A stretch of DNA of 64,000 nucleotides from IMG/VR virus record IMGVR_UViG_3300042339_000806; one strand, given 5' to 3'. The position numbers and the translations under genes were made by a program. Of the stretch, positions 4,661 through 63,481 are shown piece by piece. Under the pieces are notes generated by a model. That model was given only the letters and a program-made list of their open reading frames with translations, had not been told where the DNA came from and made no database searches. The stretch comes from a virus (lineage: Duplodnaviria > Heunggongvirae > Uroviricota > Caudoviricetes). Position 1 is the first letter of the stretch. Every line of letters begins with the position of its first letter.

Positions 4661-5116
4661 ATGAAAAAATTATTTTTATTATTAGCATTAGTATTTTTAG
4701 TATCAGCTGATACAACTACTAAGGAATGTTATAAAGTAACAAAAGTGTCTTCACAAGTTGAAGCACCTGAAATGAAAAAAGAAAGAGTTGTATTCGGAAT
4801 TAAACAAATGACAGAAGAAATTCTATCTGAAAAGCATGACATATGTGAAGATGGAACTCCAGTAGAAGTAGAAGTACTATCAGTTGAAGCACCTTCCACA
4901 AATACATCTTTAGGTCCATTCTCTAAAACTAAAAAAATTACTATTGTAAAATTAAGACTTATAATAGGAAAAGAGGAATACTGGGGTCAAGGAGAAGCAA
5001 ACGTAACAGTTCAATCAACATTCTTAGATTTGAACGACGATAACTTACCATTTAACAAGACTGCATTCTCAGGAGCAGTTAAAAAAGCTTTAGTAGAAGC
5101 TGTTGGAGAAATGTAA
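4661..5116 (+). CDS. small secreted protein
   Basis: Signal peptide MKKLFLLLALVFLVSA. Confidence 0.35.
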   Translation: MKKLFLLLALVFLVSADTTTKECYKVTKVSSQVEAPEMKKERVVFGIKQMTEEILSEKHDICEDGTPVEVEVLSVEAPSTNTSLGPFSKTKKITIVKLRLIIGKEEYWGQGEANVTVQSTFLDLNDDNLPFNKTAFSGAVKKALVEAVGEM

Positions 5117-5137
5117 AAAATTTCGTATCTTTAAGAT

Positions 5138-5341
5138 ATGGAAGAATTCACTTTTAAATTTAGAGGAAAGACATACCGACTTACAGACAAGTGGGAGGAA
5201 ACCTGTGTGAATGATTCTAAAGTTTTTCAGATACAGCAATTCAAATATGTAGACAAAGTAGGTGATTATGTTACTATGGAAAATAGAATAAATAATCAGA
5301 TAATGCTTGGATACCTGGAAGAAATTTCGTATATTAAATAA
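5138..5341 (+). CDS. hypothetical protein
   Basis: ORF directly downstream of a promoter-like motif (TTG-N20-TATCTTTA). Confidence 0.3.
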   Translation: MEEFTFKFRGKTYRLTDKWEETCVNDSKVFQIQQFKYVDKVGDYVTMENRINNQIMLGYLEEISYIK

Positions 5342-5495
5342 TAATCAAAAATCAAATTTATGTCTAAAAATTCAGCAAAGAGTATCTATACTCAACTAAT
5401 GGAATGGATTCCTACACTGAACCGTCCAAAACAAGCCGTAGAACAATCATCAACTAAATTCAGCAAAGCTGATCACTACAAATCAAAAGGAGCAT

Positions 5496-6476: not shown

Positions 6477-7367
6477 ATGTCTAAAAAACATGTTGTAGTA
6501 TCCTTAAGTGGAGGAATGGACTCAAGTACATTATTACTTAGATGTCTAAAAGAGTATGATAGTGTAACAGCTATCTCATTTGACTATGGTCAAAAACACA
6601 GAGTAGAGCTAGATAGAGCTCAATCATTGGTGAATTATATAAATTCAAACGATTCTATTGAAGCTAATGGAAGTAATTACATATTTTACCCAAAAGTAAA
6701 CTATCGCCAAATCAAACTAGACGGATTAGTTGACTTACTAGATTCAGCTTTAGTAACTGGAGGTGAAGATGTACCAGAAGGTCACTATGCAGAAGATAAT
6801 ATGAAAGCAACAGTTGTTCCTAACAGAAACAAAATATTTGCTTCTATTACTCAAGCAATAGCTTTATCAGTTGCTCAAAGAACAGGTGAATTTTGTAGTA
6901 TTGCTTTAGGTATTCACGCTGGAGATCATGCAATTTATCCTGATTGTAGACAAGAATTCCGTGATGCTGATGATTATGCATTTAGAATAGGAAATTGGGG
7001 AGCTGAAAATGTAGGGTATTTTACACCTTACTTGAAAGGAGATAAATTTACTATCTTACAAGACGGAGAAGTATTATGTGAAGAATTAGGATTAAATTTT
7101 GATGAAGTTTATAAAAGAACTAACACATCTTATAAACCAATTTGGATACCTGGACCTGAAAGTAACTCAAGAGTAGAAGAAACACTTAGAACTAAATTTG
7201 GAGAATGGTACTCAGATTATAAATCAGCTTCATCAGTTGAAAGAGTAGAAGCATTTATTAAATTAGGAAGAAAAGATCCAGCTCCTTATGCAGACGAAAC
7301 AGGACCAGTAACATGGGAACATGTGGTAGCAGAGGTAACAAAAGTATTAGATAACCATAACAATTAA
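6477..7367 (+). CDS. queC: QueC-like 7-cyano-7-deazaguanine synthase (PP-loop ATPase), atypical C-terminus
   Basis: N-terminus VVVSLSGGMDSSTLL...YDSVTAISFDYGQKHRVELDRA matches QueC SGGxDS PP-loop and DYGQRH. The YPDCRQEF motif is present. The canonical C-terminal Cys4 zinc cluster is not seen; it is replaced by a ~90 aa Cys-poor extension. Confidence 0.65.
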   Translation: MSKKHVVVSLSGGMDSSTLLLRCLKEYDSVTAISFDYGQKHRVELDRAQSLVNYINSNDSIEANGSNYIFYPKVNYRQIKLDGLVDLLDSALVTGGEDVPEGHYAEDNMKATVVPNRNKIFASITQAIALSVAQRTGEFCSIALGIHAGDHAIYPDCRQEFRDADDYAFRIGNWGAENVGYFTPYLKGDKFTILQDGEVLCEELGLNFDEVYKRTNTSYKPIWIPGPESNSRVEETLRTKFGEWYSDYKSASSVERVEAFIKLGRKDPAPYADETGPVTWEHVVAEVTKVLDNHNN

Positions 7368-7842: not shown

Positions 7843-7910
7843 TAAAAAAGTTGCTCAATTGAATTAAAGTTCGTATCTTTAAGTATTATTAATAACAAAA
7901 GAAAGTAAAA

Positions 7911-8111
7911 ATGAAAAAAGTATTTTTAGTATTAGCATTAGTATCAGCAGTATTAGTGTCTTGTAAAAAAGTAGAAGCACCTGCAAGATTAACAACAGTA
8001 GACTCAACAGCAGTAGTAGTTGATTCAGCATCAGTTGATACAACAGAAGAAGGTGCAATCATTGAAACTGAAAAAGTTCAGGATTCAATCGACGCTGCAA
8101 CCACAAAGTAA
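7911..8111 (+). CDS. small lipoprotein
   Basis: MKKVFLVLALVSAVLVSCKK: signal peptide with a lipobox-like LVSC. Preceded by a promoter motif at 7851-7888. Confidence 0.4.
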   Translation: MKKVFLVLALVSAVLVSCKKVEAPARLTTVDSTAVVVDSASVDTTEEGAIIETEKVQDSIDAATTK

Positions 8112-9275: not shown

Positions 9276-9510
9276 TTTATTTAATAGTTGGTTTGGAAAG
9301 GAAAAGTTCATATATTTATATATAGAAACAAATAAAATGAAAGCACAACAAAACATACATCAACTTAATCTTACAGCGCAGAGAGCCATTAGTATATGGT
9401 CGGATTCGTTATGTGGAGATGTGATTGTAGGCTTTACGTATAATAACGAACCGAAAAAAGGCAAGACCGGGGTATGATATAATTAACTTATACATATAAA
9501 TTCTAATAAG

Positions 9511-9548
9511 AACCCGGATCAAATAAAAAAGATTCGGGTTTTTTATTT
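9511..9548 (+). terminator. rho-independent terminator
   Basis: 10-bp stem aacccggatc/gattcgggtt (one G-U) followed by TTTTATTT. Confidence 0.6.
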
Positions 9549-9556
9549 AAAAAAAG

Positions 9557-9595
9557 TTGCTAGAAAGAATTAAAGATCGTATCTTTAGGTATATA
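9557..9595 (+). promoter_or_regulatory. Bacteroidetes-type promoter (TTG-N20-TAtcTTTAGGTATA) driving the tRNA array
   Basis: TTG at 9557, box TATCTTTA at 9580, exact 20-nt spacer. Same module seen about 17 times in the window. First tRNA starts 43 nt downstream. Confidence 0.55.
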
Positions 9596-9637
9596 AATAA
9601 AGAATAAGAGTTCATTGACATATTGGATAAAGCATAA

Positions 9638-9721
9638 GGAAGGCGGCCGAATGGACGAGGAGCTTGTCTTGAAAACAAGTAGCGGGTAACACCGTTGTGG
9701 GTTCGATTCCCATGTCTTCCT
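9638..9721 (+). tRNA. tRNA-Ser (anticodon TGA)
   Basis: Acceptor ggaaggc/gtcttcc, D region GGCCGAATGG, anticodon stem cttgt/acaag with loop CTTGAAA, long variable arm, T-arm TTCGATT. Strongly Ser-like overall. Confidence 0.6.
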
Positions 9722-9726
9722 CAATA

Positions 9727-9800
9727 TTGGCTTATAGTGTAACGGTTAGCACAAAACACTTTGACTGTTTTAGTCTAGGTTCGAATCCTAGTAAGCCAAC
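9727..9800 (+). tRNA. tRNA-Gln (anticodon TTG)
   Basis: Acceptor ttggctt/aagccaa perfect. Anticodon stem aaaca/tgttt with loop CTTTGAC. T-arm ctagg-TTCGAAT-cctag. Confidence 0.6.
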
Positions 9801-9808
9801 AATAATTT

Positions 9809-9884
9809 CGGGTAGTAGAGGAGTCTGGTTTATCTCGCTGGCCTTGGACGCTAGAGCACGCAGGTTCGAATCCTGCTTACCCGA
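9809..9884 (+). tRNA. tRNA-Pro (anticodon TGG)
   Basis: C1-G72 start typical of Pro. Anticodon stem ctggc/gctag with loop CTTGGAC. T-arm gcagg-TTCGAAT-cctgc. Discriminator A. Confidence 0.55.
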
Positions 9885-9890
9885 CGAATT

Positions 9891-9962
9891 GCCCCTATAA
9901 CTTAACGGCTAAAGTACTATACTTTTAATATAGGAATCCAAGTTCGATTCTTGGTGGGGGTA
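9891..9962 (+). tRNA. tRNA-Lys (anticodon TTT)
   Basis: D-stem actt/aagt. Anticodon stem ctata/tatag with loop CTTTTAA. T-arm ccaag-TTCGATT-cttgg. Confidence 0.6.
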
Positions 9963-10063
9963 CAAAAGCTACATACACAACCTTACAATCTCTCAGTTAA
10001 AAGCTGTTGTAAGATCAAGTAATAAGCCAATATGCTTGTTAGTTGTGATCAGGTGTAGCACCA

Positions 10064-10134
10064 GCCTCGTTGGCGTAATGGGAGCGTATTTCTTTTACAT
10101 GGAAATGGCAGTAGTTCGATTCTACTACGAGGTA
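10064..10134 (+). tRNA. tRNA-Val (anticodon TAC)
   Basis: Acceptor gcctcgt/acgaggt, anticodon stem tttct/ggaaa with loop TTTACAT, T-arm agtag-TTCGATT-ctact. Compact 71 nt. Confidence 0.5.
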
Positions 10135-10233
10135 CAAAATTCTGGGTAGCAAGTAAAATACCGGCAAGTATTTTCAAGTCTATATGGAGTCTATTATGAG
10201 TTATTAATTTGCCGATGAAAGCTTGTTATAGTT

Positions 10234-10305
10234 TCGTTCTTGGTAGATTGGTGACTACGCTGCCCGCGGAGGGTGGAGAAGCAGGTTCGATTCCTGTAGA
10301 ATGAT
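10234..10305 (+). tRNA. atypical tRNA (anticodon CGG?, Pro-like, G at position 33)
   Basis: Acceptor tcgttct/agaatga, D-stem gtag/ctac, anticodon stem ctgcc/ggtgg (two G-U) with loop CGCGGAG, T-arm gcagg-TTCGATT-cctgt. The loop lacks the conserved U33. Confidence 0.35.
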
Positions 10306-10311
10306 CAAATT

Positions 10312-10392
10312 GGGATGCTTCAGTCACTGGTGTGATAAGCGGTCTGTAAAATCGTTCTGTAAGAAGGTGTGGTTCGATTCCACAGTGTCCCA
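10312..10392 (+). tRNA. tRNA-Tyr (anticodon GTA), class II
   Basis: Acceptor gggatgc/gtgtccc, anticodon stem gcggt/atcgt with loop CTGTAAA, long variable arm, T-arm tgtgg-TTCGATT-ccaca. Confidence 0.5.
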
Positions 10393-10454
10393 CAAATATG
10401 GAATAACATCGCTCCCGTAATGCCATGGCTTGTATACGAGTGACGGGAGACAAT

Positions 10455-10527
10455 GGACCTTTGGTATAGCTGGTGCGTACGCTAGTCTGAAGAACTAGAG
10501 GAGTAGGTTCGATTCCTACAGGGTCCA
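10455..10527 (+). tRNA. tRNA-Phe (anticodon GAA)
   Basis: Acceptor ggacctt/agggtcc, anticodon stem ctagt/actag with loop CTGAAGA, T-arm gtagg-TTCGATT-cctac. Confidence 0.6.
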
Positions 10528-10604
10528 CGAAGTAGAGAGGTATGGGTTCGAGTCCCATCCGGGCCGTTAGCGGCGCGGTAGTATAACGGTAGTAACGCTT
10601 TCTT

Positions 10605-10676
10605 GGGTTTGTCGTATAACGGCTATTACGGATGACTGTTAATCATCTTATGAAGGTTCGATTCCTTCCAGGCCCG
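10605..10676 (+). tRNA. tRNA-Asn (anticodon GTT)
   Basis: Acceptor gggtttg/caggccc (2 G-U), D-stem cgta/tacg, anticodon stem gatga/tcatc with loop CTGTTAA, T-arm gaagg-TTCGATT-ccttc. Confidence 0.55.
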
Positions 10677-10682
10677 CAAAAT

Positions 10683-10756
10683 AGGTAATTAGCTCAATTG
10701 GTTAGAGCACTCGCCTGATACGTGAGAGGTTATAGGTTCGATTCCTATATTACCTA
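10683..10756 (+). tRNA. tRNA-Ile (anticodon GAT)
   Basis: AGGTAAT-TA-GCTCAATTGGTTAGAGC...CTGATAC closely parallels bacterial tRNA-Ile(GAU). T-arm atagg-TTCGATT-cctat. Confidence 0.6.
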
Positions 10757-10761
10757 CAAAG

Positions 10762-10844
10762 GGAAAGTAAATCAACTAGGAGTTGAGACCGCTTGCTAAG
10801 CGTATCGTGCCTTCGGGCATGGGGTTCGATACCTCTGCTTTCCT
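10762..10844 (+). tRNA. class II tRNA, anticodon ambiguous (possibly GCT, Ser)
   Basis: Acceptor ggaaagt/gctttcc, variable-arm hairpin gtgcc-ttcg-ggcat, T-loop TTCGATA. The anticodon region cgcttgctaagcg folds ambiguously. Confidence 0.4.
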
Positions 10845-11161
10845 CAAAAAAACCTCCTCACCGTCCTCACAACGCATCTAAGGAATGCAGGAGAAGGAAG
10901 TACGAACGGGGCCCCGTGGTAAGACACATTAAAATCAGATAGTACAGCGATAGGGTAAGAGGTTCCCTATCAACTACCGACTTGATCTAGGATCGAGAAT
11001 ATCTCATAAGTATTCTCAGACAAGAGCGTAACTTGTAGTCGGTACTAAATTATATGGGTAGGTAGGAAGTTAAGAAACGTTTCTCAAAAAACGACTTAAT
11101 GAGGTAAAGCGTTAGAGTAGTAAAATTGAGTAAGCGTTATTAAAGTAGTATAATTTTATAT

Positions 11162-11233
11162 GGTGTTCGAAGCTTTTTAGTGAAGCGCAAGACTGTGAAT
11201 CTTGAGAAGACGGGGCGGTACCGTCCTTACACC
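11162..11233 (+). tRNA. tRNA-His-like (anticodon GTG), atypical T-loop and acceptor
   Basis: Anticodon arm caaga-CTGTGAA-tcttg perfect, with anticodon at the expected position 34-36. T-arm gacgg-ggcggta-ccgtc has a non-canonical loop. Acceptor pairing is imperfect. Confidence 0.3.
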
Positions 11234-11239
11234 CAACAT

Positions 11240-11319
11240 GCCTCTGTGGTGAAATAGGTAAACACACCAGGCTTAAAACTTGGCGCTCAGGCTTGCTGGT
11301 TCGACTCCAGTCAGGGGTA
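11240..11319 (+). tRNA. tRNA-Leu (anticodon TAA), class II
   Basis: Acceptor gcctctg/caggggt, anticodon stem ccagg/cttgg with loop CTTAAAA, long variable arm, T-arm gctgg-TTCGACT-ccagt. Confidence 0.55.
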
Positions 11320-11408
11320 CAAAAAAATCGCTGATGTCCTCTTTAATTGTTCGACATTGAAGATGTGTAATGATATAAACATCGTAGGTTAAGCGATATC
11401 CTACAACT

Positions 11409-11480
11409 GGTCTTATAGTTTAATTGGAAAAACTTATCGCTACGAACGATAGAACGTAGGTTCGACTCCTACTAAGACCT
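11409..11480 (+). tRNA. tRNA-Arg (anticodon ACG)
   Basis: Acceptor ggtctta/taagacc perfect, anticodon stem tatcg/cgata with loop CTACGAA, T-arm gtagg-TTCGACT-cctac. Confidence 0.6.
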
Positions 11481-11640
11481 CAAAATATAATTACAAAGCG
11501 TAGGTAAGAAGACGTGGAGAGACGTTGCGCAAGGGTACACACTAAGGATAAGTATTTATACTCAACTCTCTAAGGGTGTGTGAAGCACTAAGAAATTAGA
11601 TCCCAGATTCCTGATAAAACTTACTAATTATATTTTAACC

Positions 11641-11712
11641 GCCCTATTAGTTAAACGGATATAACGAATCTCTTCTAAAGATTAATTCTAGGTTCGATTC
11701 CTGGATGGGGTA
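11641..11712 (+). tRNA. tRNA-Arg (anticodon TCT)
   Basis: D-stem gtta/taac, anticodon stem aatct/agatt perfect with loop CTTCTAA, T-arm ctagg-TTCGATT-cctgg. Confidence 0.6.
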
Positions 11713-11718
11713 CAACAA

Positions 11719-11789
11719 GCGGGTCACAGACAAGGTGTCGGTACGGTCTCCAAAACTGCTACGGGTAGGTTCGATTCCTACGGTCTGCG
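11719..11789 (+). tRNA. tRNA-Trp (anticodon CCA)
   Basis: Anticodon loop CTCCAAA identical to the bacterial tRNA-Trp loop. T-arm gtagg-TTCGATT-cctac. Acceptor gcgggtc/ggtctgc with three G-U. Confidence 0.45.
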
Positions 11790-11847
11790 CAAAATTATTA
11801 ATTATGAAAAAGAAATTCGATGCTCATTAGGTTTATTAACCTAAAAT

Positions 11848-12039
11848 TTGAGCAAGATGAGAATCAAAAACTATACTCAGAAAGAGTATAAAAAAGAAAA
11901 AAGAAAACAATCCAAAGATGGTGGAATGTGGTTTGAAGACTATTGGAGTAAATGTAAATCCGGAATATGGGCCTTCAAGTACAGAGAGTACCGTACTTGG
12001 AAGTACAACAGAAAAACACAGTATAAACCTTTAAATTAA
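11848..12039 (+). CDS. small Lys/Arg/Tyr/Trp-rich basic protein
   Basis: 63-aa ORF immediately upstream of the HNH gene within the tRNA island. Confidence 0.3.
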   Translation: MSKMRIKNYTQKEYKKEKRKQSKDGGMWFEDYWSKCKSGIWAFKYREYRTWKYNRKTQYKPLN

Positions 12040-12044
12040 AAATC

Positions 12045-12551
12045 ATGAGTAAGTATCAAAAAGCACTAGTAGTGGATGCAAGCTTTACAGCAAGATCAGT
12101 TATAAGTACCGAACGAGCGTTCGTGATTTTTTATAAGGGTAATGCTGAAGTAGTAGCAGAGCATCCAGAAACATTTAGTTTAATTAATCCTGAACTAACC
12201 ATTTACAAACCTTCTATTATTAGAGTAGCTAAGTATGTAAAACAAAACATTCAAAAAGTACCTCTAACAAGAGAGAATATTTACCGAAGAGATAATTATG
12301 AATGTGTTTATTGTGGTAGTTCAAATCAAAGAATATTAACACTTGACCATGTTATCCCTCAATCAAAAGGAGGAAAAGATGCTTGGGATAATTTAGTAAC
12401 AGCTTGTAGACCATGTAATCATGAGAAAGCAGATTTAACATTAGAGGAATATGGTAAGGAAATTCCAGAACCAAAAAGACCTCATTATTTAATGTTAATG
12501 AGAAGTATGACATACATACCTAAAGAATGGGAAACATTTTTATTCTTTTAA
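12045..12551 (+). CDS. HNH homing endonuclease
   Basis: CVYCGSSNQRILTLDHVIPQSKGGKDAWDNLVTACRPCNHEK is the canonical HNH ββα-Me/zinc motif. It sits inside the tRNA array. Confidence 0.75.
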   Translation: MSKYQKALVVDASFTARSVISTERAFVIFYKGNAEVVAEHPETFSLINPELTIYKPSIIRVAKYVKQNIQKVPLTRENIYRRDNYECVYCGSSNQRILTLDHVIPQSKGGKDAWDNLVTACRPCNHEKADLTLEEYGKEIPEPKRPHYLMLMRSMTYIPKEWETFLFF

Positions 12552-12820
12552 ATAATGGAAGAGTGGAAGCCAGGATATTATGATAAATGGGAGAATTTTA
12601 TTCCTTATGATAAAAAATGGTATTGTAATGAAAATAAAAGAATCCATCAATCAGAAAAGGAAAAAAATAATTGTAAGTATTGCAATAAAGGTTTGGAAAA
12701 CCAGAAATAGTTTCATATATTAAGGTATAAGAAAGTAAAATATATCACCTACTACAAAACGGCGCGCGAAACAATAGAATCCCGACTTGTACTGTCTGGA
12801 AGGTCAGGCTAGGTGAAAAT

Positions 12821-12891
12821 GGGCAGTTGGCCGATTGGTTAGGCACAGGATTGCAAACTCTGTTAGGTTGGTTCGATTCCAACACTGCCCT
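12821..12891 (+). tRNA. tRNA-Cys (anticodon GCA)
   Basis: Acceptor gggcagt/actgccc perfect, anticodon loop TTGCAAA, T-arm gttgg-TTCGATT-ccaac. Confidence 0.55.
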
Positions 12892-12986
12892 CATTTAAGG
12901 TTCGACCCTCTACCAAATGTGTTACACCCACAAATGGACAACGAGAGGGAGCTACCGATTGATAAGTGGCCGCACATGCGGCAAAT

Positions 12987-13060
12987 GCCCGAGTGGTGGA
13001 ATTGGCAGACACGGCGGCCTTAGAAGTCGTAAACTGAGAGTTCGAGTCTCTCCTTGGGTA
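12987..13060 (+). tRNA. tRNA with anticodon TAG (Leu by anticodon) but class I short variable arm
   Basis: Acceptor gcccgag/cttgggt, anticodon stem gcggc/gtcgt with loop CTTAGAA, T-arm gagag-TTCGAGT-ctctc. It is 74 nt with a 5-nt variable loop, unusual for Leu. Confidence 0.4.
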
Positions 13061-13136
13061 CAAATTAGAGTTAGCTTATAGTAAAGCAGCAGGGGCTAAC
13101 CTGCAGAACGGATACGAAAACCGGCTCTAATTATCT

Positions 13137-13210
13137 GCTTCTGACGCACAAATGGTGGTGCACCGGATTTGTAACCCAGAATAGAGTCGGTTCGATCCCG
13201 TCCAGAAGCT
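13137..13210 (+). tRNA. tRNA, probable Thr (anticodon TGT), weak anticodon stem
   Basis: Acceptor gcttctg/cagaagc perfect and D-stem gcac/gtgc. The loop TTTGTAA sits in a poorly paired stem. Confidence 0.4.
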
Positions 13211-13215
13211 CAACT

Positions 13216-13287
13216 GCGACTATCGTATAATGGTCATTACTTCAGACTTCCAATCTGAAGATGAGAGTTCGATTCTCTCTAGTCGCT
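13216..13287 (+). tRNA. tRNA-Gly (anticodon TCC)
   Basis: Acceptor gcgacta/tagtcgc perfect, anticodon stem tcaga/tctga with loop CTTCCAA, T-arm gagag-TTCGATT-ctctc. Confidence 0.6.
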
Positions 13288-13338
13288 CAGGGGTGTGTAG
13301 GAGCCCAAGAGTATGTGATGAGCATACGCCTACAATTT

Positions 13339-13410
13339 GCTGCCATCGTCTAACGGCTAGGACCTATGGTTTTCATCCATAAAATCGGAGTTCGATTCTC
13401 CGTGGCAGTA
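13339..13410 (+). tRNA. tRNA-Glu (anticodon TTC)
   Basis: Anticodon stem tatgg/ccata perfect with loop TTTTCAT, T-arm cggag-TTCGATT-ctccg. Confidence 0.6.
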
Positions 13411-13415
13411 CAAAA

Positions 13416-13487
13416 GGGGCTATAGTGAAATTGGCATCACGATAGATTTGCATTCTGTTATTCCGGGTTCGAATCCCGGTAGCTCCA
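13416..13487 (+). tRNA. tRNA-Ala (anticodon TGC)
   Basis: Acceptor ggggcta/tagctcc with G3-U70, anticodon loop TTTGCAT, T-arm ccggg-TTCGAAT-cccgg. Confidence 0.6.
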
Positions 13488-13492
13488 CAAAA

Positions 13493-13564
13493 GGTCTATT
13501 CGTTCAACGGCTAGGATACTACCCTGTCACGGTAGGGATGAGAGTTCGATTCTCTCATAGACCG
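13493..13564 (+). tRNA. tRNA-Asp (anticodon GTC)
   Basis: Acceptor ggtctat/atagacc perfect, anticodon stem ctacc/ggtag with loop CTGTCAC, T-arm gagag-TTCGATT-ctctc. Confidence 0.6.
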
Positions 13565-13572
13565 CTTATAAA

Positions 13573-13643
13573 CTGCGTTAAAGTGTAAAGGTTGCATCCC
13601 GGTCTCATAAGCCGGGGGGGTGGTTCGAGTCCACGCTACGCTA
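13573..13643 (+). tRNA. tRNA-Met-like (anticodon CAT), possibly initiator-like; acceptor stem poorly paired
   Basis: GC-rich anticodon stem ccggt/gccgg with loop CTCATAA. T-arm gtgg-TTCGAGT-ccac. The 5' and 3' ends do not form a 7-bp acceptor by eye. Confidence 0.35.
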
Positions 13644-13649
13644 CAAATT

Positions 13650-13723
13650 GTCCTTTTAGCTCAGATGGTGAGAGCAGCTCGCTCATAACGAGAAGGTCAC
13701 AGGTTCGAGCCCTGTATAGGACA
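13650..13723 (+). tRNA. tRNA-Met elongator (anticodon CAT)
   Basis: TA-GCTCAGATGGTGAGAGC D-arm, loop CTCATAA, AGGTCACAGGTTCGAGCCCTGT closely resembles bacterial elongator Met. Confidence 0.55.
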
Positions 13724-13787
13724 CTAAATTTTATCCACTATGAGGTCAATTCCTTCGTCTCCAATGTAGGTTAGCTATTGCTAACTT

Positions 13788-14021
13788 ATGACTCAGAAAT
13801 TGAGAATTTGGAGAGTAGTCCCAACCAGCATGACTGGTGTTCAGGCTCCCACGTTTTTTGTAGAAACTACAGAAAATGGTAGAGAAGAAGCAGAAAAATC
13901 TGCAAACCTACAAGCAAGACAAAAATCTCGCTTGGGTAAGTTTAACAATTGGTATTTTGATTTAACAAGAATGAATGTCAGAGTAGACAGACATGGGAGG
14001 TATATCAAACATCACCAATAA
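13788..14021 (+). CDS. hypothetical protein
   Basis: First ORF after the tRNA island. Confidence 0.3.
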   Translation: MTQKLRIWRVVPTSMTGVQAPTFFVETTENGREEAEKSANLQARQKSRLGKFNNWYFDLTRMNVRVDRHGRYIKHHQ

Positions 14022-14088
14022 GAAATATTCGGAGAAAGGTTTGGAAACCTGAACCTTTCTTCTTATATTAAATAAAAATAAAGGTAAT

Positions 14089-14304
14089 ATGGTCTGGTCT
14101 GTATTTAGTATTGAAGTAAAAGAGCAATTAGCATGGACAATACATACTAGACTATTTATGGGCGATCTATCTAATATAGATCTTACAACAGATTGGAGAT
14201 TTTGTGATGTTAAAGGAAAAAGAAGGAATTGTATATTCTTAGGTTTTATTGACAACCCAGAATTTCCATTAAAAGAACCAATAAAAACATATAGAAATAA
14301 TTAA
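14089..14304 (+). CDS. hypothetical small protein
   Basis: ORF fills an otherwise empty 300-nt gap. Confidence 0.25.
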   Translation: MVWSVFSIEVKEQLAWTIHTRLFMGDLSNIDLTTDWRFCDVKGKRRNCIFLGFIDNPEFPLKEPIKTYRNN

Positions 14305-14319
14305 ATAAAAATCATAGTT

Positions 14320-15231
14320 ATGAAAAATTCGTTATCTACAAAAGGGTTATCAATGTCTCAAGCACAATCAATCTCAAACTTGTGCAATCAACGTTCAAAA
14401 GATATTACAGCGAAATTGGCTGATATCAATAACGTTTCTAAAGAACTAGTAATAGGTTCAGAAACCTATGTAGAGACTAATGGGAATCCTATCCCAGTAA
14501 ACGTAGTTGAGCTATTAACTGCTAAGGCAAGATTATCTGCCACTCAAGCTTTCTTGATGGAGAATATCAAAGCAAAGGATGAATTGATTACTAAAATCAA
14601 ATTTGAAAAGTATAACTACGAGGTTGAATCTCCAGAGAGACCAAAACTAATCTCAGAAGTAATTCCAACAGAAGTGGATGAAGATTTTGGTTGGGATACT
14701 TTATCTACAGCCGAATACAACGAATACCTAGAGGCAGAAGCTTATGCTTCACATATCGGACAATTCATCCATAAAGGAGGAAAATTGGATAAGTTGAGAG
14801 GAGAACTTCCTACCATTAAAACTTTAGAGTTTATGGAAATAGAAGTAGGAAAGAAAACTCCTATGAAAGTATCTATTCACCATACAGCAGAACAATTGCT
14901 TTCAGTTCATGAACAATTAGCAGCTCTTCATAGAGGATTTGAACAAAGAGTAAATTACTTTAAATCTAAAGTAAAAAATGCTACTACTTCTGAGAATGCT
15001 AGAATTCAGAAAGAGAGAGGTATCATTCAAGCAAGAGTGAATAACGAGAATGCAGAAGCTGCAAACAATTATAAGTTAGCTTATGATAAGTGGTCTGGAG
15101 AGGAACGTCAAGCACAACACGAGTTTGAAGAAAAACGTCAAGCAAGAATCCAAGAAGCTGTCAATTTAAAAATTGAAGTAGCAGAAAGATTCCAGGACGT
15201 AGTAGATGAATTCTTGAATCAACTAAAATAA
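14320..15231 (+). CDS. hypothetical protein
   Basis: 303-aa ORF with a helical, charged C-terminus. Confidence 0.35.
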   Translation: MKNSLSTKGLSMSQAQSISNLCNQRSKDITAKLADINNVSKELVIGSETYVETNGNPIPVNVVELLTAKARLSATQAFLMENIKAKDELITKIKFEKYNYEVESPERPKLISEVIPTEVDEDFGWDTLSTAEYNEYLEAEAYASHIGQFIHKGGKLDKLRGELPTIKTLEFMEIEVGKKTPMKVSIHHTAEQLLSVHEQLAALHRGFEQRVNYFKSKVKNATTSENARIQKERGIIQARVNNENAEAANNYKLAYDKWSGEERQAQHEFEEKRQARIQEAVNLKIEVAERFQDVVDEFLNQLK

Positions 15232-15572
15232 TTTGGTGCTAAGGAGGTAAGCACAAGCCGATCCTCCAAAGCTTTATGCTGGGATAGTAGAGTTTTAAAT
15301 ATAAACTATATGATATATGTAATCATCTACAGACTAAACGGCCATGGGCCCTTTAAAACTCGCTTCCCTACAACTTAAACCAAACTGAGATAGAACTCAA
15401 CAGCTAGACATGTTACTCTTGAGGGAGACTAAAAGTGGCTAGCGACTCTAAGACTTAGTTTTTGTCCTTGCCCTTGTGGTAGTGGAAGGTTTTTGACTTT
15501 GATTTTGCATTTGACCTAGGCTATATGCTTTACATCCCAGCAACATTTTTTTAAAAATAATTAACAAAAAGC

Positions 15573-15611
15573 TTGCTTAGGCAGGCTTTTATTCGTATAT
15601 TTAGGTATAGA
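15573..15611 (+). promoter_or_regulatory. promoter module (TTG-N20-TATATTTAGGTATAGA) preceded by a weak hairpin
   Basis: Exact 20-nt spacer. Lies inside the computed ORF 15573-15863, arguing the real start is ATG 15621. Confidence 0.5.
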
Positions 15612-15620: not shown

Positions 15621-15863
15621 ATGAAAGATGCATTAGGAATAGAGATTCAAATAGGACAGCGATACGGATACTCCAGAAATGAAAATGGATTTACTTATGT
15701 ACGAATAGGTACTATAAGTAAGGTAAATGAAAAGACAGTAACAATGGATGTAGAGATTACAAAGAGAGCATTATACAGTGCAGACTTGGTAATAGATTCT
15801 ACATCAAGTAAAAAAATATCAATAAAAGGAAATATGTTATTCCCAGTTAATACAATAGATTAA
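15621..15863 (+). CDS. hypothetical protein (start trimmed to internal Met downstream of promoter)
   Basis: MKDALGIEIQ... begins 10 nt after the GGTATAGA box. Confidence 0.35.
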   Translation: MKDALGIEIQIGQRYGYSRNENGFTYVRIGTISKVNEKTVTMDVEITKRALYSADLVIDSTSSKKISIKGNMLFPVNTID

Positions 15864-18363: not shown

Positions 18364-18375
18364 AATAATTGTTAA

Positions 18376-18401
18376 AAGAGTTGCTAGTTCAACTCTTTTT
18401 T
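18376..18401 (+). terminator. rho-independent terminator
   Basis: Stem agagttg/caactct followed by TTTTTT. Immediately followed by promoter 18381-18417. Confidence 0.55.
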
Positions 18402-18436
18402 CATATATTTAGGTATAATAATTAAACAAAAAGGTT

Positions 18437-21463: not shown

Positions 21464-21471
21464 GAAAAGTT

Positions 21472-21490
21472 GGCTCTTCGGAGCCTTTTT
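21472..21490 (+). terminator. rho-independent terminator
   Basis: ggctc-ttcg-gagcc hairpin plus TTTTT. A promoter box TATCTTTAAGTATA follows at 21493. Confidence 0.55.
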
Positions 21491-21518
21491 CTTATCTTTA
21501 AGTATAATTAAAAAGGTT

Positions 21519-24189: not shown

Positions 24190-25860
24190 ATGAATAATAA
24201 ATTTACATTCCACGTATTAGGACTTCCTCATACAATCACTAATAGAGAATTTGTAGCATGTGCTTATACACAAAAGGCTTGGAAATTCTGTAAGATGATG
24301 GGGGAAAGAGGGCATACTATCTACCATTACGGACATGAGGAGAGCGACGCTCCATATGCGGAAAACGTAACAGTTATCACCAATAAGGTATGGAAAAAAG
24401 TATACGGTACTCATGACTATAAATCTAAATTCTTTAAATATAATGTAGAGGATGAAGCCTATCAAACCTTCTATAAAAATGCTATAAAGGAAATAGGAAA
24501 GAGAAAACAGAAGAATGATTTCATTTTACCATTCTGGGGGTCAGGAGTAAGGCCGGTATGTGACGGACATCCAGATTTAATAACTGTTGAACCAGGAATA
24601 GGCTATGCAGGAGGGCATTGGGCAAATTGGAAAGTATTTGAATCTTATGCAATCTACCATGCATACTACGGACTGATGGGAGTGAATTATTGCGATATGA
24701 AAAACTACGAAGTAGTAATTCCAAACTACTTCGACCTCTCTGATTTTGAATTTAGCGATAAAAAAGAAGATTACTTTCTTTATTTAGGAAGAGTCTTTGA
24801 CGGAAAAGGAGTTAATATAGCAATCCAGGTTACTGAACACTTAGGGTATAAATTAAAGATAGCAGGACAGATTGACGCCGATGGACCTTATAAGGATGGA
24901 AAGTTTCCTCCTCATGTAGAGTTTGTAGGGTATGCTGGAACCGAAAAGAGAAAAGAACTGATGAAGAGTGCAAAAGGATGCTTCCTACCTTCACAATATG
25001 TTGAACCATTTGGAGGAGTTCAAATAGAAAATTTACTATCAGGAACACCAACAATTACCTCAGACTGGGGAGCCTTTGCAGAGAATAATATAAACGGAGT
25101 AACTGGTTACAGATGTAGAACGTTTGATGATTACTTGCAGGCAACTATAAAAATTAACAACGGAGAAATAGATTACAAGACTTGTAGAGAGTATGGAGAA
25201 AAGTTTTCATTAGAGAATGTAGCTCCTATGTACGAAAAATATTTTAAAGATATTTTAAATGTTTATGAAGGAGAAGGATGGTATCAAACAGATATTCCTA
25301 GAGGGAAGACTGATGCTTTCAATTATACAAATATGGAGGAAGAAGAAAAGCCATTTGCAGATAATCTAGCTAAGTGGATTAAAAAGTATTACAATCCTAA
25401 AAAAGTAGTCGATGTAGGTTGCGGGAGTGGGACTTATGTAAGGTCCTTAAGAAAAGAAAAAATTGATGCTATTGGGTACGATATTAACGATGTAGTAGAA
25501 GATCAGGACTTTCTCTTTAAAAAGAGTATCTTTGACCTAAACCATAAATCAGAACTAATTATCTGCCTGGAAGTAGCCGAGCACATAGAGACAGAACACA
25601 ACGACAGTATTGTTGAAAAGTTATACGAAAACCTTAAACCAGGAGGTACTTTAATCTTCACAGCAGCACATCCAGGACAGCAAGGAATAGGTCATATAAA
25701 CTGTCAAACAAAAGACTACTGGTGGGAGAAGTTTGCAGAAAAAGGATTAGTCCGAGATTTAAAAGCAGAGAAGGATTGGGAAGATTATTTTGATCAAGGA
25801 AGAGAGTACATGGGATGGTTCCGTATGAACAAGCTCTTTTTAACTAGAGTAGGATCATAA
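24190..25860 (+). CDS. bifunctional glycosyltransferase (GT-B/GT4-like) - class I SAM methyltransferase fusion
   Basis: N-terminal/central EPFGGVQIENLLSGTPTITSDWGAF resembles the GT4 E-x7-E/PVI region. C-terminal VVDVGCGSGTYV is SAM-MTase motif I, with DAIGYDIN / LIICLEV motifs II/III. Confidence 0.5.
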   Translation: MNNKFTFHVLGLPHTITNREFVACAYTQKAWKFCKMMGERGHTIYHYGHEESDAPYAENVTVITNKVWKKVYGTHDYKSKFFKYNVEDEAYQTFYKNAIKEIGKRKQKNDFILPFWGSGVRPVCDGHPDLITVEPGIGYAGGHWANWKVFESYAIYHAYYGLMGVNYCDMKNYEVVIPNYFDLSDFEFSDKKEDYFLYLGRVFDGKGVNIAIQVTEHLGYKLKIAGQIDADGPYKDGKFPPHVEFVGYAGTEKRKELMKSAKGCFLPSQYVEPFGGVQIENLLSGTPTITSDWGAFAENNINGVTGYRCRTFDDYLQATIKINNGEIDYKTCREYGEKFSLENVAPMYEKYFKDILNVYEGEGWYQTDIPRGKTDAFNYTNMEEEEKPFADNLAKWIKKYYNPKKVVDVGCGSGTYVRSLRKEKIDAIGYDINDVVEDQDFLFKKSIFDLNHKSELIICLEVAEHIETEHNDSIVEKLYENLKPGGTLIFTAAHPGQQGIGHINCQTKDYWWEKFAEKGLVRDLKAEKDWEDYFDQGREYMGWFRMNKLFLTRVGS

Positions 25861-25927
25861 AAAGATATTTCTTATATTTATTAACATATAACAACAGTGT
25901 CGTAGCACCACTTTAAAAACACACCTT

Positions 25928-30437: not shown

Positions 30438-30441
30438 TAAG

Positions 30442-30465
30442 TTGGCTCTTCGGAGCCAATTTCTT
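30442..30465 (+). terminator. rho-independent terminator
   Basis: ttggctc-ttcg-gagccaa hairpin plus TTT. A degenerate promoter box follows. Confidence 0.5.
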
Positions 30466-30489
30466 ATATTAATAAAAAAGTAAAAAGTT

Positions 30490-34402: not shown

Positions 34403-34408
34403 TATAAA

Positions 34409-34434
34409 AGAGTTGCTTAACCGCAGCTCTTTTC
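34409..34434 (+). terminator. rho-independent terminator
   Basis: agagttgc-ttaacc-gcagctct hairpin plus TTTT. A promoter box TATCTTTA follows at 34436. Confidence 0.5.
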
Positions 34435-34466
34435 TTATCTTTACATAATATAAAAACAAAAAGGTT

Positions 34467-40406: not shown

Positions 40407-40428
40407 GAGAGACTTTACTTAAACATCA

Positions 40429-40453
40429 AAGAGGCCTTGTGCCTCTTTTTTTT
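40429..40453 (+). terminator. rho-independent terminator
   Basis: aagaggc-cttgt-gcctctt hairpin followed by TTTTTTTT. Confidence 0.6.
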
Positions 40454-40484
40454 GTGCTATTTATTAGAAATTAAACCAGTTACT

Positions 40485-42499: not shown

Positions 42500-42507
42500 A
42501 TTAAATA

Positions 42508-42532
42508 AGGCTTGTTTTTACAGGCCTTTTTT
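42508..42532 (+). terminator. rho-independent terminator
   Basis: aggcttg-ttttta-caggcct hairpin followed by TTTTTT. Confidence 0.5.
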
Positions 42533-42562
42533 CTTATATTATAGTTATATAAAAATGTTATT

Positions 42563-43754: not shown

Positions 43755-43789
43755 GGGTATATTTATATATACATATAATTATATAAACA

Positions 43790-46735: not shown

Positions 46736-47193
46736 TGGAAGAAAAAATGTCAATCTGTCCACACTGTGGAGGAAATGCTTGCTATGAACAAGCAGTAACA
46801 GAAGAAGTAACAACAAGCTTTTGCTTTGGTTGTGGATATTCAACTTCAACTCTAATGGTTGAAGGAGGAGATCTAGTAGCAAAAACACTAGAAGCATCAC
46901 CAGAACTTTATAAAGATCTTATGTTTATTGACGAAGATAAGAGAGTATGGTTCCCTTCAACAGTTACTCTTCCTGGTAAGGGAATGGTATTCTTAGATGG
47001 TACAGCAAAAGAGAATTGGAAATGGGCTGCAGTAAACTCTATAGAGATTTTAGAAGAAGAGAAATCTAAGTTCCCAAAAGGTCAAACAACTAAAATGGAT
47101 ATGAAAAATATTAAACATTTTGAGAAAGAAGACTTCATGGAAGCATTAGATGCTATAAACTTCTTTGATGTAGAAGTTGCAGAATCAAAATAG
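46735..47193 (+). CDS. zinc-ribbon-containing hypothetical protein
   Basis: CPHCGGNACY ... CFGCGY. Confidence 0.3.
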   Translation: MEEKMSICPHCGGNACYEQAVTEEVTTSFCFGCGYSTSTLMVEGGDLVAKTLEASPELYKDLMFIDEDKRVWFPSTVTLPGKGMVFLDGTAKENWKWAAVNSIEILEEEKSKFPKGQTTKMDMKNIKHFEKEDFMEALDAINFFDVEVAESK

Positions 47194-47211
47194 ATTTCGT
47201 ATATTTACAGT

Positions 47212-47826
47212 ATGAAAATAAGTTATGCAATAACAGTTTGTAATGAATTGGAGGAAGTGAAAAGACTAGTCAACTTCCTCCTTTCACATAAACGAAAAGA
47301 AGACGAGATAGTAATCTTGTTTGATGAGAAGAACGGAACAGATGAAGTATTTGATTATATAGAATCTCAAGTACACGACTGTGAAGTCTTCTGTGAAAAA
47401 TTCGAAGGACACTTTGCCGATTGGAAGAACTTACTGACTTCACATTGTACAGGAAATTATATCTTCCAAATAGATGCTGATGAGATTCCTCATCTCAATT
47501 TAATTCAAAACCTACCTACACTGTTAGAGACTAACGATGTTGATATGCTCAGAATACCTAGAGTAAATACTGTAGAAGGACTAACTCAAGAACATATTCA
47601 GAAGTGGGGATGGAATGTAAATGAAAAAGGATGGGTGAACTGGGCTGATTGGCAAATGAGAATCTATAAGAATGTTCCTTACATTAAATGGGTTAATAAG
47701 GTACATGAAGTACTAGAAGGATTTAAGATCCATGGCATGCTTCCAGTAGAAGAGGAATGGGCTTTGTACCATCCAAAGACAATTGACAGACAAGAGAAAC
47801 AAAACAACTACTACGATACATTATGA
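47212..47826 (+). CDS. glycosyltransferase family 2-like
   Basis: ISYAITVCNELEEV (GT2 N-terminal) and QIDADEIP (DxD). Confidence 0.45.
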   Translation: MKISYAITVCNELEEVKRLVNFLLSHKRKEDEIVILFDEKNGTDEVFDYIESQVHDCEVFCEKFEGHFADWKNLLTSHCTGNYIFQIDADEIPHLNLIQNLPTLLETNDVDMLRIPRVNTVEGLTQEHIQKWGWNVNEKGWVNWADWQMRIYKNVPYIKWVNKVHEVLEGFKIHGMLPVEEEWALYHPKTIDRQEKQNNYYDTL

Positions 47827-55739: not shown

Positions 55740-55778
55740 TTGCTAGAACGAATCTTTATTCTTATATTTAGGTATAAT
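55740..55778 (+). promoter_or_regulatory. promoter module TTGCTAG-N-TATATTTAGGTATAAT
   Basis: TTG 55740, TATATTTA 55763, 20-nt spacer. Confidence 0.5.
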
Positions 55779-56964: not shown

Positions 56965-57004
56965 TTGCTAGTACGAATCTTTGTTCGTATATTTAGGTAT
57001 AGAA
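56965..57004 (+). promoter_or_regulatory. promoter module
   Basis: TTG 56965, TATATTTAGGTATAGA from 56988, 20-nt spacer. Confidence 0.5.
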
Positions 57005-57912: not shown

Positions 57913-57951
57913 TTGCTAGTTACGAAGTTAGTTCGTATATTTAGGTATAGA
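57913..57951 (+). promoter_or_regulatory. promoter module
   Basis: TTG 57913, TATATTTAGGTATAGA from 57936, 20-nt spacer. Confidence 0.5.
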
Positions 57952-60112: not shown

Positions 60113-60151
60113 TTGCCTCCTAAGAATATATTTCATATATTTAGGTATAAT
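60113..60151 (+). promoter_or_regulatory. promoter module
   Basis: TTG 60113, TATATTTAGGTATAAT from 60136, 20-nt spacer. Confidence 0.5.
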
Positions 60152-61029: not shown

Positions 61030-61056
61030 TAAAATATATTAAAAATAATTGATAAA

Positions 61057-61082
61057 AGAGTTGCTAGCGCAGCTCTTTTTTC
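61057..61082 (+). terminator. rho-independent terminator
   Basis: agagttgc-tagc-gcagctct hairpin plus TTTTTT, followed by promoter 61061-61100. Confidence 0.55.
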
Positions 61083-61117
61083 GTATATTTAGGTATAGAA
61101 ATCAATTAAAAATAAAG

Positions 61118-63444: not shown

Positions 63445-63481
63445 TTGCTTATATGGCCTATGGTTCTTATCTTTAGGTATA
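63445..63481 (+). promoter_or_regulatory. promoter module
   Basis: TTG 63445, TATCTTTAGGTATATA from 63468, 20-nt spacer. Confidence 0.5.

Follow-up and report, generated by a model that had tools for sequence, protein, structure and literature searches.

The 64,000-nt stretch of the Caudoviricetes record IMGVR_UViG_3300042339_000806 (below, the window) carries a recurrent intergenic element of the form TTG-N20-TAnnTTTA, one copy of which, starting at 9557, stands 45 nt before an array of 20 tRNA genes. We found that these cassettes are almost certainly promoters, some of them fused to terminators. Probably, they are early or middle promoters that would be read by the unmodified RNA polymerase of the host; a terminator is built into some of them, and the leader is fixed.

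The closest cultured phages at the DNA level, and the only ones, are the Flavobacterium phages vB_FspM_immuto (immuto), 160-kb myoviruses of the genus Immutovirus that infect Flavobacterium sp. LMO8. The complete immuto genome was used for comparison with the window. The window is syntenic with immuto positions ~12.6-67.5 kb; the DNA identity there is 70-90%, and small insertions and deletions (indels) are numerous. The phage of the window has T4-like portal and capsid genes. All substantial open reading frames (ORFs) of the window are on the plus strand, the GC skew is positive throughout, and the GC content is ~35%.

The exact pattern had 17 matches in the window, 15 of them on the plus strand, compared to 2.75 +/- 1.62 matches (at most 7) in shuffled sequences. 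With the spacer varied from N15 to N25 on the plus strand, N20 produced 15 copies and every other spacing from 0 to 3. A 52-nt weight matrix built from the 15 window copies found, above a threshold of 15 bits, 19 sites on the plus strand and none on the minus strand, where the best score was 1.0; no site in 100 locally shuffled windows exceeded 15 bits, and the best score there was 10.9. The boxes were located outside ORFs and tRNA genes in 19 of 21 cases, in a window that is 90.8% coding (P ~4e-18). Enrichment, the N20-only spacing, strand and intergenic placement thus bear out the recurrent cassettes of fixed geometry that had been proposed in a sequence-only reading of the window. Most of the 17 positions given in that reading stand as well: 13 are exact (5103, 7851, 9557, 15573, 18381, 21470, 34413, 55740, 56965, 57913, 60113, 61061 and 63445), the copy placed at 47175 begins two nucleotides later, and those at 30442 and 42512 have degenerate boxes (Table 1). 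The position 40437 had to be removed; a terminator is followed there by a box variant of the late type described below (in the immuto orthologue, CTATTTATA), and the weight matrix gave no hit. Missing from the earlier list were the copy at 9288 and the weak copies at 5307, 12693, 14041 and 25850. Three ORFs with TTG starts (15573, 40437 and 61049) cross these elements, and their in-frame ATG codons at 15621, 40485 and 61121 make the trimming of these ORFs, proposed earlier, reasonable.

The consensus of the 15 window copies and 30 immuto copies reads aaAAnAG-TTG(C)-N15-TTC-n-TAT(a/c)TTTA-GGTAT. We numbered it by the rule derived for F. johnsoniae, which runs from T-12 A-11 to G-5 and leaves 4-5 nt before the start site (PMC6847099). 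On this scale the TTG occupies -35 to -33, the TTC -16 to -14, the box -12 to -5 and GGTAT -4 to +1. The start site, expected earlier at about 7 nt after the box, is predicted at 5-6 nt if 4-5 nt separate box and start as in the host; for the copy at 9557 the predicted start is at ~9592-9593. Leaders up to the next ATG were mostly 13-26 nt long. For the first genes after a cassette (n = 11), the ATG was preceded by T at -1 in 100%, T at -2 in 91% and G at -3 in 64% of cases, compared to 54%, 39% and 25% for the other genes. Since this start context, AAAAA(G)GTTATG, is fixed, the repeat unit spans the region from the A-tract to the start codon. In immuto the leader is conserved as GGTAT(A/C)AATAATTAAAAC, more weakly than the boxes and in a subfamily-specific manner. 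In the copies at 5103 and 47177 the ATG begins at the fifth nucleotide after the box, which is the predicted start site, and the respective mRNAs, with ATG at 5137 and 47212, may be leaderless.

The earlier assignment of the cassettes to the Bacteroidetes sigma-A promoter (-33 TTTG / -7 TAnnTTTG) was correct in part. In 241 promoters of F. johnsoniae the box was revised to TAHHTTTG, with a G at -5 that is "nearly invariant", and the host phylum is without promoters of the sigma-70 type (PMC6847099). We observed TAT(A/C)TTT in all 15 window and 30 immuto copies, with TA or TC and no G at -10/-9. Of the six near-invariant host positions, T-12, A-11, T-8 and T-7 were retained at all sites and T-6 at most; among 557 distinct sites of relatives, -6 was T in 409 and A in 148. 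The agreement with the host promoter extends to these five positions, to the lack of G at -10/-9 and, in part, to the -33 element with its TTG; it fails at -5. This position was A in 45 of 45 window and immuto copies. Among the 557 sites of relatives, collected from 194 loci (2.29 Mb) with a pattern that left -5 free, it was A in 497 (89%), T in 31, C in 19 and G in 10 (1.8%); at least one site per locus in 114 of these loci had been picked for A, which builds in a part of the bias, and the remaining independent sites agree. The host-type pattern TTG-N20-TAnnTTTG had no occurrence in the window. In a small control, 72 kb of Bacteroidota chromosomal DNA, enrichment upstream of genes was 4.5-fold for the G-ended box and 1.4-fold for the A-ended one.

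The -33 element also had to be corrected. The TTG ending at -33 is invariant and its 20-nt spacer is strict, but the preceding base is mostly G, not T, and the actual element is GTTG(C/G) instead of TTTG. Nor does the motif discriminate against the Proteobacterial -35/-10 promoter, as had been argued, for it also makes a good sigma-70 promoter, TTGCTA-N17-TATATT. As a class, sigma-70-like sites were not enriched in the window (60-67 per 20 kb vs 69-80 in shuffles). Because of this second way to read the cassette, the motif alone cannot prove a Bacteroidetes host, and its use as a host marker is only partly justified, though the host named from it is right. The Flavobacteriia-type host is borne out by the cultured Flavobacterium-phage relatives and by the absence of Shine-Dalgarno sequences, which precede 3% of the window genes vs 4% in a control (2-3% in the window and immuto), as expected of a Bacteroidetes host (PMC6847099).

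We propose the following course of events. Most likely, the host RNA polymerase with its primary sigma factor would bind two fixed blocks, an arrangement that, with the free spacer between them, is the signature of sigma-type recognition, and would start 5-6 nt after the box. In the 5' to 3' direction, the polymerase would meet an A-rich tract, AG-TTG(C/G) (-37 to -32), a variable spacer of 15 nt, TTC, TAT(A/C)TTTA and GGTAT, and the transcript would open with an A-rich leader of 13-26 nt that ends in (G)GTTATG. The genes so served would be small host-takeover genes, the tRNA array, and genes of nucleotide metabolism, DNA modification and replication. In about one third of the copies the spacer and the TTG double as the arms of a G+C-rich hairpin, bordered by A- and T-runs, which would terminate RNA arriving from upstream, so that one 45-nt element would close one unit and open the next. 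The copies with no hairpin would permit read-through.

The evidence for terminators came from folding and covariation. Folding of the positions from -12 to +22 around each TTG gave a bimodal distribution: 8 of the 21 window copies had energies of -9 to -17 kcal/mol, and the rest stayed between -5 and 0 kcal/mol; among 31 immuto copies, 10 had a hairpin in the stronger range. A hairpin with a T-run, reported earlier as a repeated companion of the promoter, is thus a property of a subset, in which it extends across the TTG and the spacer. The z-scores of the hairpins against shuffles ranged from -2.4 to -6.5. Where such a hairpin is present, its 5' arm contains the TTG, the T-run after the stem is the promoter spacer, and the upstream A-run lengthens the stem. 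The stems are G+C-rich, 7-11 bp long, often with a UUCG tetraloop, and are followed by 4-6 U. A standard terminator scanner finds some of these hairpins and misses three, because the A/T extension of the stem absorbs the T-run.

For the covariation analysis we used 80 IMG/VR loci with a DpdA protein 65-98% identical to that of the window, and aligned two groups of orthologous cassettes. In the orthologues of the copy at 34413 (n = 18), 97% of the cells were paired, compared to 45-67% in slid controls, and two pairs were changed on both sides; in the orthologues of 30442 (n = 10), the respective figures were 94%, 29-63% and three. The observed covariation score was reached by 0 of 500 shuffles in both groups. 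Many of the stem pairs are G·U, which can pair in the plus-strand RNA only, and the structure therefore acts in the sense transcript. Both the compensatory changes and the G·U pairs in relatives support the view that the hairpins work as intrinsic terminators in RNA. A strong hairpin was present in 139 of the 557 distinct sites of relatives.

The cassette is spread widely among uncultured relatives. A scan of IMG/VR viral sequences with the pattern TTG-N16-TTCNTATMTTTAGGTAT, which has the N20 geometry, found it in at least 114 stretches, many with 3-11 copies, on source contigs of up to 168 kb; among the IMG/VR matches listed, the density was as high as 11 copies in 11-13 kb. In the 80 loci anchored by DpdA, the weight matrix had 156 hits, all of them on the gene strand. 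The spacing was again narrow: 2.29 Mb of relatives had 589 sites with N20, 33 with N19 and 9 with N21. Of cultured phages, only immuto carried the cassette.

Scanning with an N21 pattern produced 7 IMG/VR and more than 120 mostly marine metagenome contigs, which belong to one family. The marine cassette reads AAAAAAAnnC-TTGAC(a/t)nnGTATnG..TTtn-TTCGTATaTTTAGGTAT. Its -35 element is located one nucleotide further upstream than in the window (AAAAAAAnnC-TTGACw-N14-TTCGTATaTTTAGGTAT), which makes TTGAC(A/T)-N18-TATATT, with a perfect TTGACA, next to the same 17-nt block. Among 127 distinct sites defined by the 17-nt block alone, 119 had TTG at N21 and 98 had TTGAC. Up to 5 copies were seen within 3 kb. 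The marine contigs share with immuto and the window a terminase (58% amino acid identity), thioredoxin, an HNH endonuclease, an EmrE-like protein, PhoH and glycosyltransferases. Unlike the window and immuto, these contigs have genes with Shine-Dalgarno sequences (38% vs 8% in the control), and for this reason the hosts of the marine family are probably not Bacteroidetes; in an in-silico study, a marine Far-T4-like genome was assigned to Bacteroidetes (PMC7198788). The Microcystis phage Mel-JY01, with a terminase as close to the marine family as that of immuto, was considered as a further carrier and rejected, the cassette being absent from both strands. In the genome collection, the N21 pattern was found as 20 singletons, each in another genome and in many taxa.

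The distribution of copies along the immuto genome separates two classes of putative promoters. The matrix found ~37 cassettes in immuto, all but one on the gene strand. As many as 24 were in the 60.9-76.2 kb region, where they preceded almost every small hypothetical ORF, and only two, both weak, were in the structural half (78-160 kb). The others preceded tRNAs, an endolysin homologue, a unit of family-A DNA polymerase, GroES and GroEL genes, and a glycosyltransferase cluster. A second box, (A/C)TATTTATA(A/T), was found 15-30 nt before the ATG, with no upstream element, at the immuto terminase, portal, capsid-proximal, sheath, tube and tape-measure genes; with the prefix, it occurred 28 times on the plus strand and 3 times on the minus strand. 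Three window genes have it, at 43760-43767, at 54787-54794 and, as a variant, at ~40458-40467 after the terminator 40428-40448. The second box and the cassette box have the common core TATTTA, and hybrids exist at 9313 in the window, where the TATTTATA octamer begins inside the copy at 9288, and at 128572 in immuto. The architecture of the second box resembles that of the T4 late promoter TATAAATA, and by analogy it looks like a T4-style late promoter. With two distinct classes of boxes and such a distribution among genes, the cassettes would therefore make an early or middle class. They almost certainly mark the starts of transcription units, as had been claimed, but of one class of units only; the second box stands before structural genes in immuto and before three window genes.

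Several observations weigh against early promoters that are read by the unmodified host enzyme. The G at -5 is absent where in the host it is nearly invariant. The TTC at -16 to -14 and the GGTAT at -4 to +1 are outside the host consensus, and they are as conserved as the host-type positions; a phage factor could be the cause. The best spacer in the host is reportedly 19 bp, not 20. The promoter role itself, the polymerase, the time of firing and the start site are all deduced from sequence, and the word "early" is drawn from gene content and genome position alone. Finally, the absence of matches to a sigma factor, an anti-sigma factor or an activator, which speaks for the host enzyme, covers only the 40 window proteins that were compared to PHROGs (10 of them also to Pfam), and profile searches often miss small phage proteins that resemble or bind sigma factors.

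The alternative that draws most on these observations takes the cassettes for middle promoters, in need of a phage sigma factor or of a MotA/AsiA-style activator to recognize TTGC, TTC, A-5 and GGTAT. It would explain why G-5 is systematically avoided (1.8% of 557 sites), why conservation is strong outside the host consensus, and why the marine family has the same 17-nt block despite different -35 and translation signals; moreover, a T4-style single-box late class means that the phage reprogrammes transcription at some stage. However, a sigma factor, anti-sigma factor or activator appears neither among the 40 window proteins nor in the immuto annotations. The one annotation of interest, "DnaK suppressor protein" for immuto gp165, was not confirmed, as the window orthologue (55797-56198) matched only the Pfam zinc finger zf-FPG_IleRS (21.9 bits) and no PHROG. 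The unmodified host enzyme must read some class of promoters, and the cassettes are the only candidate found; they also precede the cluster of ORFans, which in other large phages is immediate-early. A recurrent host-type promoter TTG-N19-21-TAnnTTTG that could serve the first genes was not present in the window. We favour the host holoenzyme because no recurrent host-consensus promoter was found that could be immediate-early instead, and no transcription-protein match in the 40 proteins, and we consider the dependence on a phage factor unlikely.

Two related candidates were dropped. The immuto annotation "RNA polymerase subunit N" was not confirmed for the window orthologue. The MotA-dependent middle promoter of T4 was rejected as a model, since conservation is limited to TTGC (-35 to -32) and TTGG is as frequent in relatives. 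TTGCTTA is present in three copies, and the MotA box TGCTTtA is centred at -30; neither the MotA nor the AsiA family was found by PHROG or Pfam in the 40 window proteins scanned.

It is very unlikely, in our view, that the main role of the cassettes is evolutionary, with regulation secondary. They would then provide, like the promoter-early stem-loop (PeSL) of T4-type phages, homology for insertion, deletion and swapping of gene cassettes. Near-identical subfamilies do exist (21470/30442, 34413/61061 and 57913/61061, the last with 80% identity over 88 nt), and immuto has runs of copies that are identical through the 20-nt leader. Window-specific blocks abut cassettes at 16517-18363 (copy 18381) and 59284-61044 (copy 61061), and a gene was replaced just downstream of 34413. 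Still, synteny with immuto was broken at 5 of 21 junctions with a cassette and at 32 of 99 without one (Fisher p = 0.6). On their left side, the two best insertions lack even a remnant of the cassette that they have on the right, and the conservation of two blocks, position by position, around a free spacer points to protein recognition, rather than length of homology, as the object of selection. That the cassettes are no promoters at all, and act as operators, replication or packaging signals, conserved 5' untranslated regions or RNA-processing sites, is hardly credible: conservation runs past the predicted start into the leader and the TTATG context and could act at the RNA level, but in the leader it is weaker and subfamily-specific, while the canonical -35/-33 and -12/-7 distances, the strict spacing, the co-orientation with genes, the dispersal of copies before dozens of unrelated genes and the tRNA array, and the lack of origin-like or pac-like clustering all speak for promoters.

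Reading by the host polymerase would take place on unusual DNA. In immuto every G is replaced by 7-(formylamino)methyl-7-deazaguanine, fdPreQ1 (PMC10516641). The window encodes the full pathway, QueC, QueD, QueE, FolE, QueF, DpdA (96% identical) and the formyltransferase DpdN, and its phage DNA is probably fully G-substituted too. The genes of this pathway are at 6477-7367, 26414-26875, 27189-27962, 29517-30224, 31198-31992, 32151-32678 and 33207-34133, and their proteins are 61-96% identical to those of immuto. Because every G is replaced, the host sigma factor would meet a modified base at each promoter G. It is conceivable, though rather improbable, that this chemistry shaped the promoter consensus, with the avoidance of G-5 and the compensating contacts to TTC and GGTAT either adapting the host polymerase to hypermodified DNA or letting a phage factor tell phage DNA from host DNA. 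The 17-nt block shared by the marine family, which has another -35 element and Shine-Dalgarno sequences, fits a constraint carried by the phage and not by the host. A comparison of two Cellulophaga phages of one host, phiST (all G replaced) and phiSM (almost unmodified), was dropped, as the phage-encoded RNA polymerase of phiST confounds it.

The individual elements are listed in Table 1.

Table 1. Cassettes and associated elements of the window; energies (dG) in kcal/mol, scores by the weight matrix
Element	Position	Strand	Composition and context	Evidence
Cassette	5103..5138	+	Overlaps end of ORF 4661-5116; ATG 5137-5139	Exact match, 26.5 bits (medium); orthologue immuto 16396
Weak variant	5307..5342	+	Box TATATTAA	16.1 bits; orthologue immuto 16600
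Strong cassette	7851..7886	+	No hairpin (dG 0); upstream of small ORF 7911-8111	50.3 bits; orthologue immuto 19829
Cassette	9288..9323	+	Box TATATTTATATATA, late-type hybrid; upstream of ORF 9337-9477	Exact match, 34.9 bits
Separate intrinsic terminator	9512..9545	+	Just upstream of 9557; 9-bp stem ACCCGGATC / GATTCGGGT, 10-nt loop, T5 run	Read from sequence
Cassette	9557..9592	+	TTG 9557-9559, box TATCTTTA 9580-9587, GGTAT 9588-9592	Exact match, 53.3 bits
Weak variant	12693..12728	+	TATATTAAGGTATAAG; in tRNA region, before second tRNA block 12821-13724	17.4 bits; repeat family D15
Hairpin	14031..14062 (element to 14076)	+	dG -16.9; closes tRNA block; overlaps weak variant cassette with TTG at 14041 and box TATATTAA	Terminator scan, fold, repeat family D15
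Terminator-bearing cassette	15567..15608	+	Hairpin 15567-15590 (dG -12.3), TTG 15573, box TATATTTAGGTATAG; first gene 15621-15863, leader ~13 nt	48.7 bits; fold z -4.8
Terminator-bearing cassette	18374..18416	+	Hairpin 18374-18399, TTG 18381	57.3 bits; dG -9.6, z -4.7
Terminator-bearing cassette	21464..21505	+	GGCTC-TTCG-GAGCC and T5 run, TTG 21470	47.5 bits; terminator scan
Very weak copy	25850..25885	+	TAG for TTG; overlaps end of ORF 24190-25860	9.4 bits
Degenerate copy (30442)	30439..30477	+	Hairpin 30439-30462, stem GGCTC-TTCG-GAGCC; box TATATTAA; no GGTAT; upstream of 30490-31002	25.0 bits; dG -12.5
Terminator-bearing cassette	34406..34448	+	AGAGTTGC / GCAGCTCT 34406-34433, TTG 34413	46.8 bits; terminator scan
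Non-member (40437)	40428..40467	+	Terminator 40428-40448, then late-type box variant CTATTTATTA	Terminator scan; no matrix hit
Degenerate copy (42512)	42503..42547	+	Hairpin 42503-42532 (dG -12.3), box TATATTAT; upstream of 42563-42832	19.7 bits; terminator scan, fold
Medium cassette	47177..47212	+	Within end of ORF 46735-47193; glycosyltransferase ATG 47212 ~5 nt after box	36.9 bits; orthologue immuto 52372
Strong cassette	55740..55775	+	No hairpin; directly 3' of TAG stop of upstream ORF	54.4 bits; identical to immuto 60931
Strong cassette	56965..57000	+	No hairpin; upstream of 57019-57348	60.9 bits
Strong cassette	57913..57948	+	No hairpin; upstream of DUF932 gene 57974-58798 (Pfam)	52.3 bits; identical to immuto 63128
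Strong cassette	60113..60148	+	In window-specific insertion; upstream of SPFH/Band-7 gene 60193-61029 (Pfam Band_7)	50.8 bits
Terminator-bearing cassette	61051..61096	+	Hairpin 61051-61082 (dG -14.6), TTG 61061; upstream of 61121-61297	60.9 bits; fold z -5.4
Strong cassette	63445..63480	+	No hairpin; ATG ~10 nt on opens small ORF ending 63708	51.2 bits; orthologue immuto 66953

The copy at 9557, with a spacer that forms no hairpin (dG 0), is the predicted promoter of the tRNA array, whose 20 genes extend over 9638-13724. The copy at 18381 is predicted to drive the endolysin homologue 18437-18997; in its immuto orthologue (22069) one G-C pair has become C-G and one A-U pair G·U, so that the stem is kept. 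At the orthologue of 21470 (immuto 25489), another hairpin is present in the same register. The copy at 34413 heads a unit that begins with 34467-34922 and continues with the genes for family-A DNA polymerase, GroES and GroEL. By the Pfam and PHROGs annotation, the copy at 55740 would drive a zinc-finger protein gene (55797-56198) and an HNH endonuclease gene. The immuto orthologue of 56965 (62173) has the same boxes with a different spacer, and the element at 61051 is 92% identical to immuto 64483-64582. The very weak copy at 25850 is doubtful as a promoter.

The tRNA array is enlarged compared to that of immuto, which has 4 tRNAs. An Rfam scan of 9400-14400 found tRNAs only. One of them, at 13137-13210 (35.9 bits), was not reported by ARAGORN, and two ARAGORN predictions, tRNA-Pro(cgg) at 10234-10306 and tRNA-Tyr at 10312-10393, were below the Rfam threshold. 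An HNH endonuclease gene (12045-12551; PHROG 16726, E = 3e-33) is located within the array. Adjoining the array is an insertion absent from immuto (16729-18363) with genes for a polynucleotide-kinase-like ATPase (PHROG 2071/505) and an RNA ligase (Pfam RNA_ligase), apparently a module for tRNA repair like Pnk/Rnl of T4. The second HNH gene of the window, at 56199-56852, has homologues beside cassettes in 13 marine loci.

The lone immuto cassette on the opposite strand (67555) precedes an ORF-less transcript of ~185 nt (locus L002, 17330-17560, minus strand), a candidate small RNA. Motifs of the form CTTTAACTTAAA recur in the predicted transcript, and a strong terminator, the complement of window 63828-63848, closes it; the window counterpart of the 3' part of this locus is ~63825-64000, minus strand. 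Rfam assigned it to no family (the best hit, ctRNA_p42d with E = 0.044, was below the threshold). Similar lone divergent copies were observed in two IMG/VR relatives (L244 and L295). Elsewhere in the window, the ORF 1449-2432 (327 amino acids) consists of degenerate tandem repeats rich in GCAGAAGCA (Ala/Glu/Gly), and its nearest match, with 55% amino acid identity, is in a different place in immuto, 45.0-45.6 kb.

For a large and mostly uncultured group of aquatic Flavobacterium-type phages, these elements make up a transcription map of early and metabolic promoters, a structural-gene box and optional terminators. They could also supply promoter and terminator parts, compact and probably strong, for Flavobacteriia, a group with few genetic tools. 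The presence of A-5 in place of the host G, in phages that have no ordinary G, raises the question of how a bacterial polymerase reads promoters that are fully substituted with 7-deazaguanine. The general picture of phage gene control does not change; the signal is of an ordinary kind with a lineage-specific twist, the clade-wide near-absence of G-5. In the literature searched we found neither the motif nor an account of flavobacterial-phage promoters.

Among known systems, the Bacteroidetes sigma-ABfr promoter shares with the cassette the A/T-rich upstream and spacer regions, the box positions T-12, A-11, T-8, T-7 and T-6, and the TTG ending at -33. The cassette differs from it by A-5, by GTTG(C/G), by the additional TTC and GGTAT, and by A-6 in a quarter of the sites of relatives. 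When compared to the sigma-70 promoter (TTGACA-N17-TATAAT), TTGCTA-N17-TATATT has 9 of 12 matches at the optimal spacing. The cassette hairpins have the features of an intrinsic terminator, a stable and covarying stem-loop on the sense strand followed by a U-run; unlike an ordinary one, the cassette terminator overlaps the next promoter base for base. The T4 early promoters are similar in that they use the host sigma-70 with a phage-specific extended consensus, have A-rich upstream sequence and conserved positions outside the core hexamers, recur before numerous early genes, and exist beside a single-box late class. The difference is in the host phylum and the type of sigma factor. T4 early promoters have been reviewed (PMC2988021).

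The closest known analogue is the PeSL (Arbiol et al. 2010, PMC2839356; Comeau et al. 2014, PMC4122927), a composite cassette of terminator, early promoter and translation start that is repeated before ORFans and is lineage-specific (PMC4122927). Some features set the two apart. The cassette promoter has the Bacteroidetes geometry, not the sigma-70 consensus; its stem-loop is optional (about one third of copies) and is built into the promoter instead of standing upstream; a (G)GTTATG start context takes the place of the Shine-Dalgarno sequence; and the association of the PeSL with indels was not seen at the cassettes in the breakpoint counts given above (5/21 vs 32/99). On the other hand, both are small intergenic repeats that combine a stem-loop and an early-type promoter with AT-rich sequence upstream and a conserved translation start. 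As with the PeSL, the cassettes are concentrated before small ORFans in variable regions and are rare among structural genes, and in both systems the sequence is specific to the lineage.

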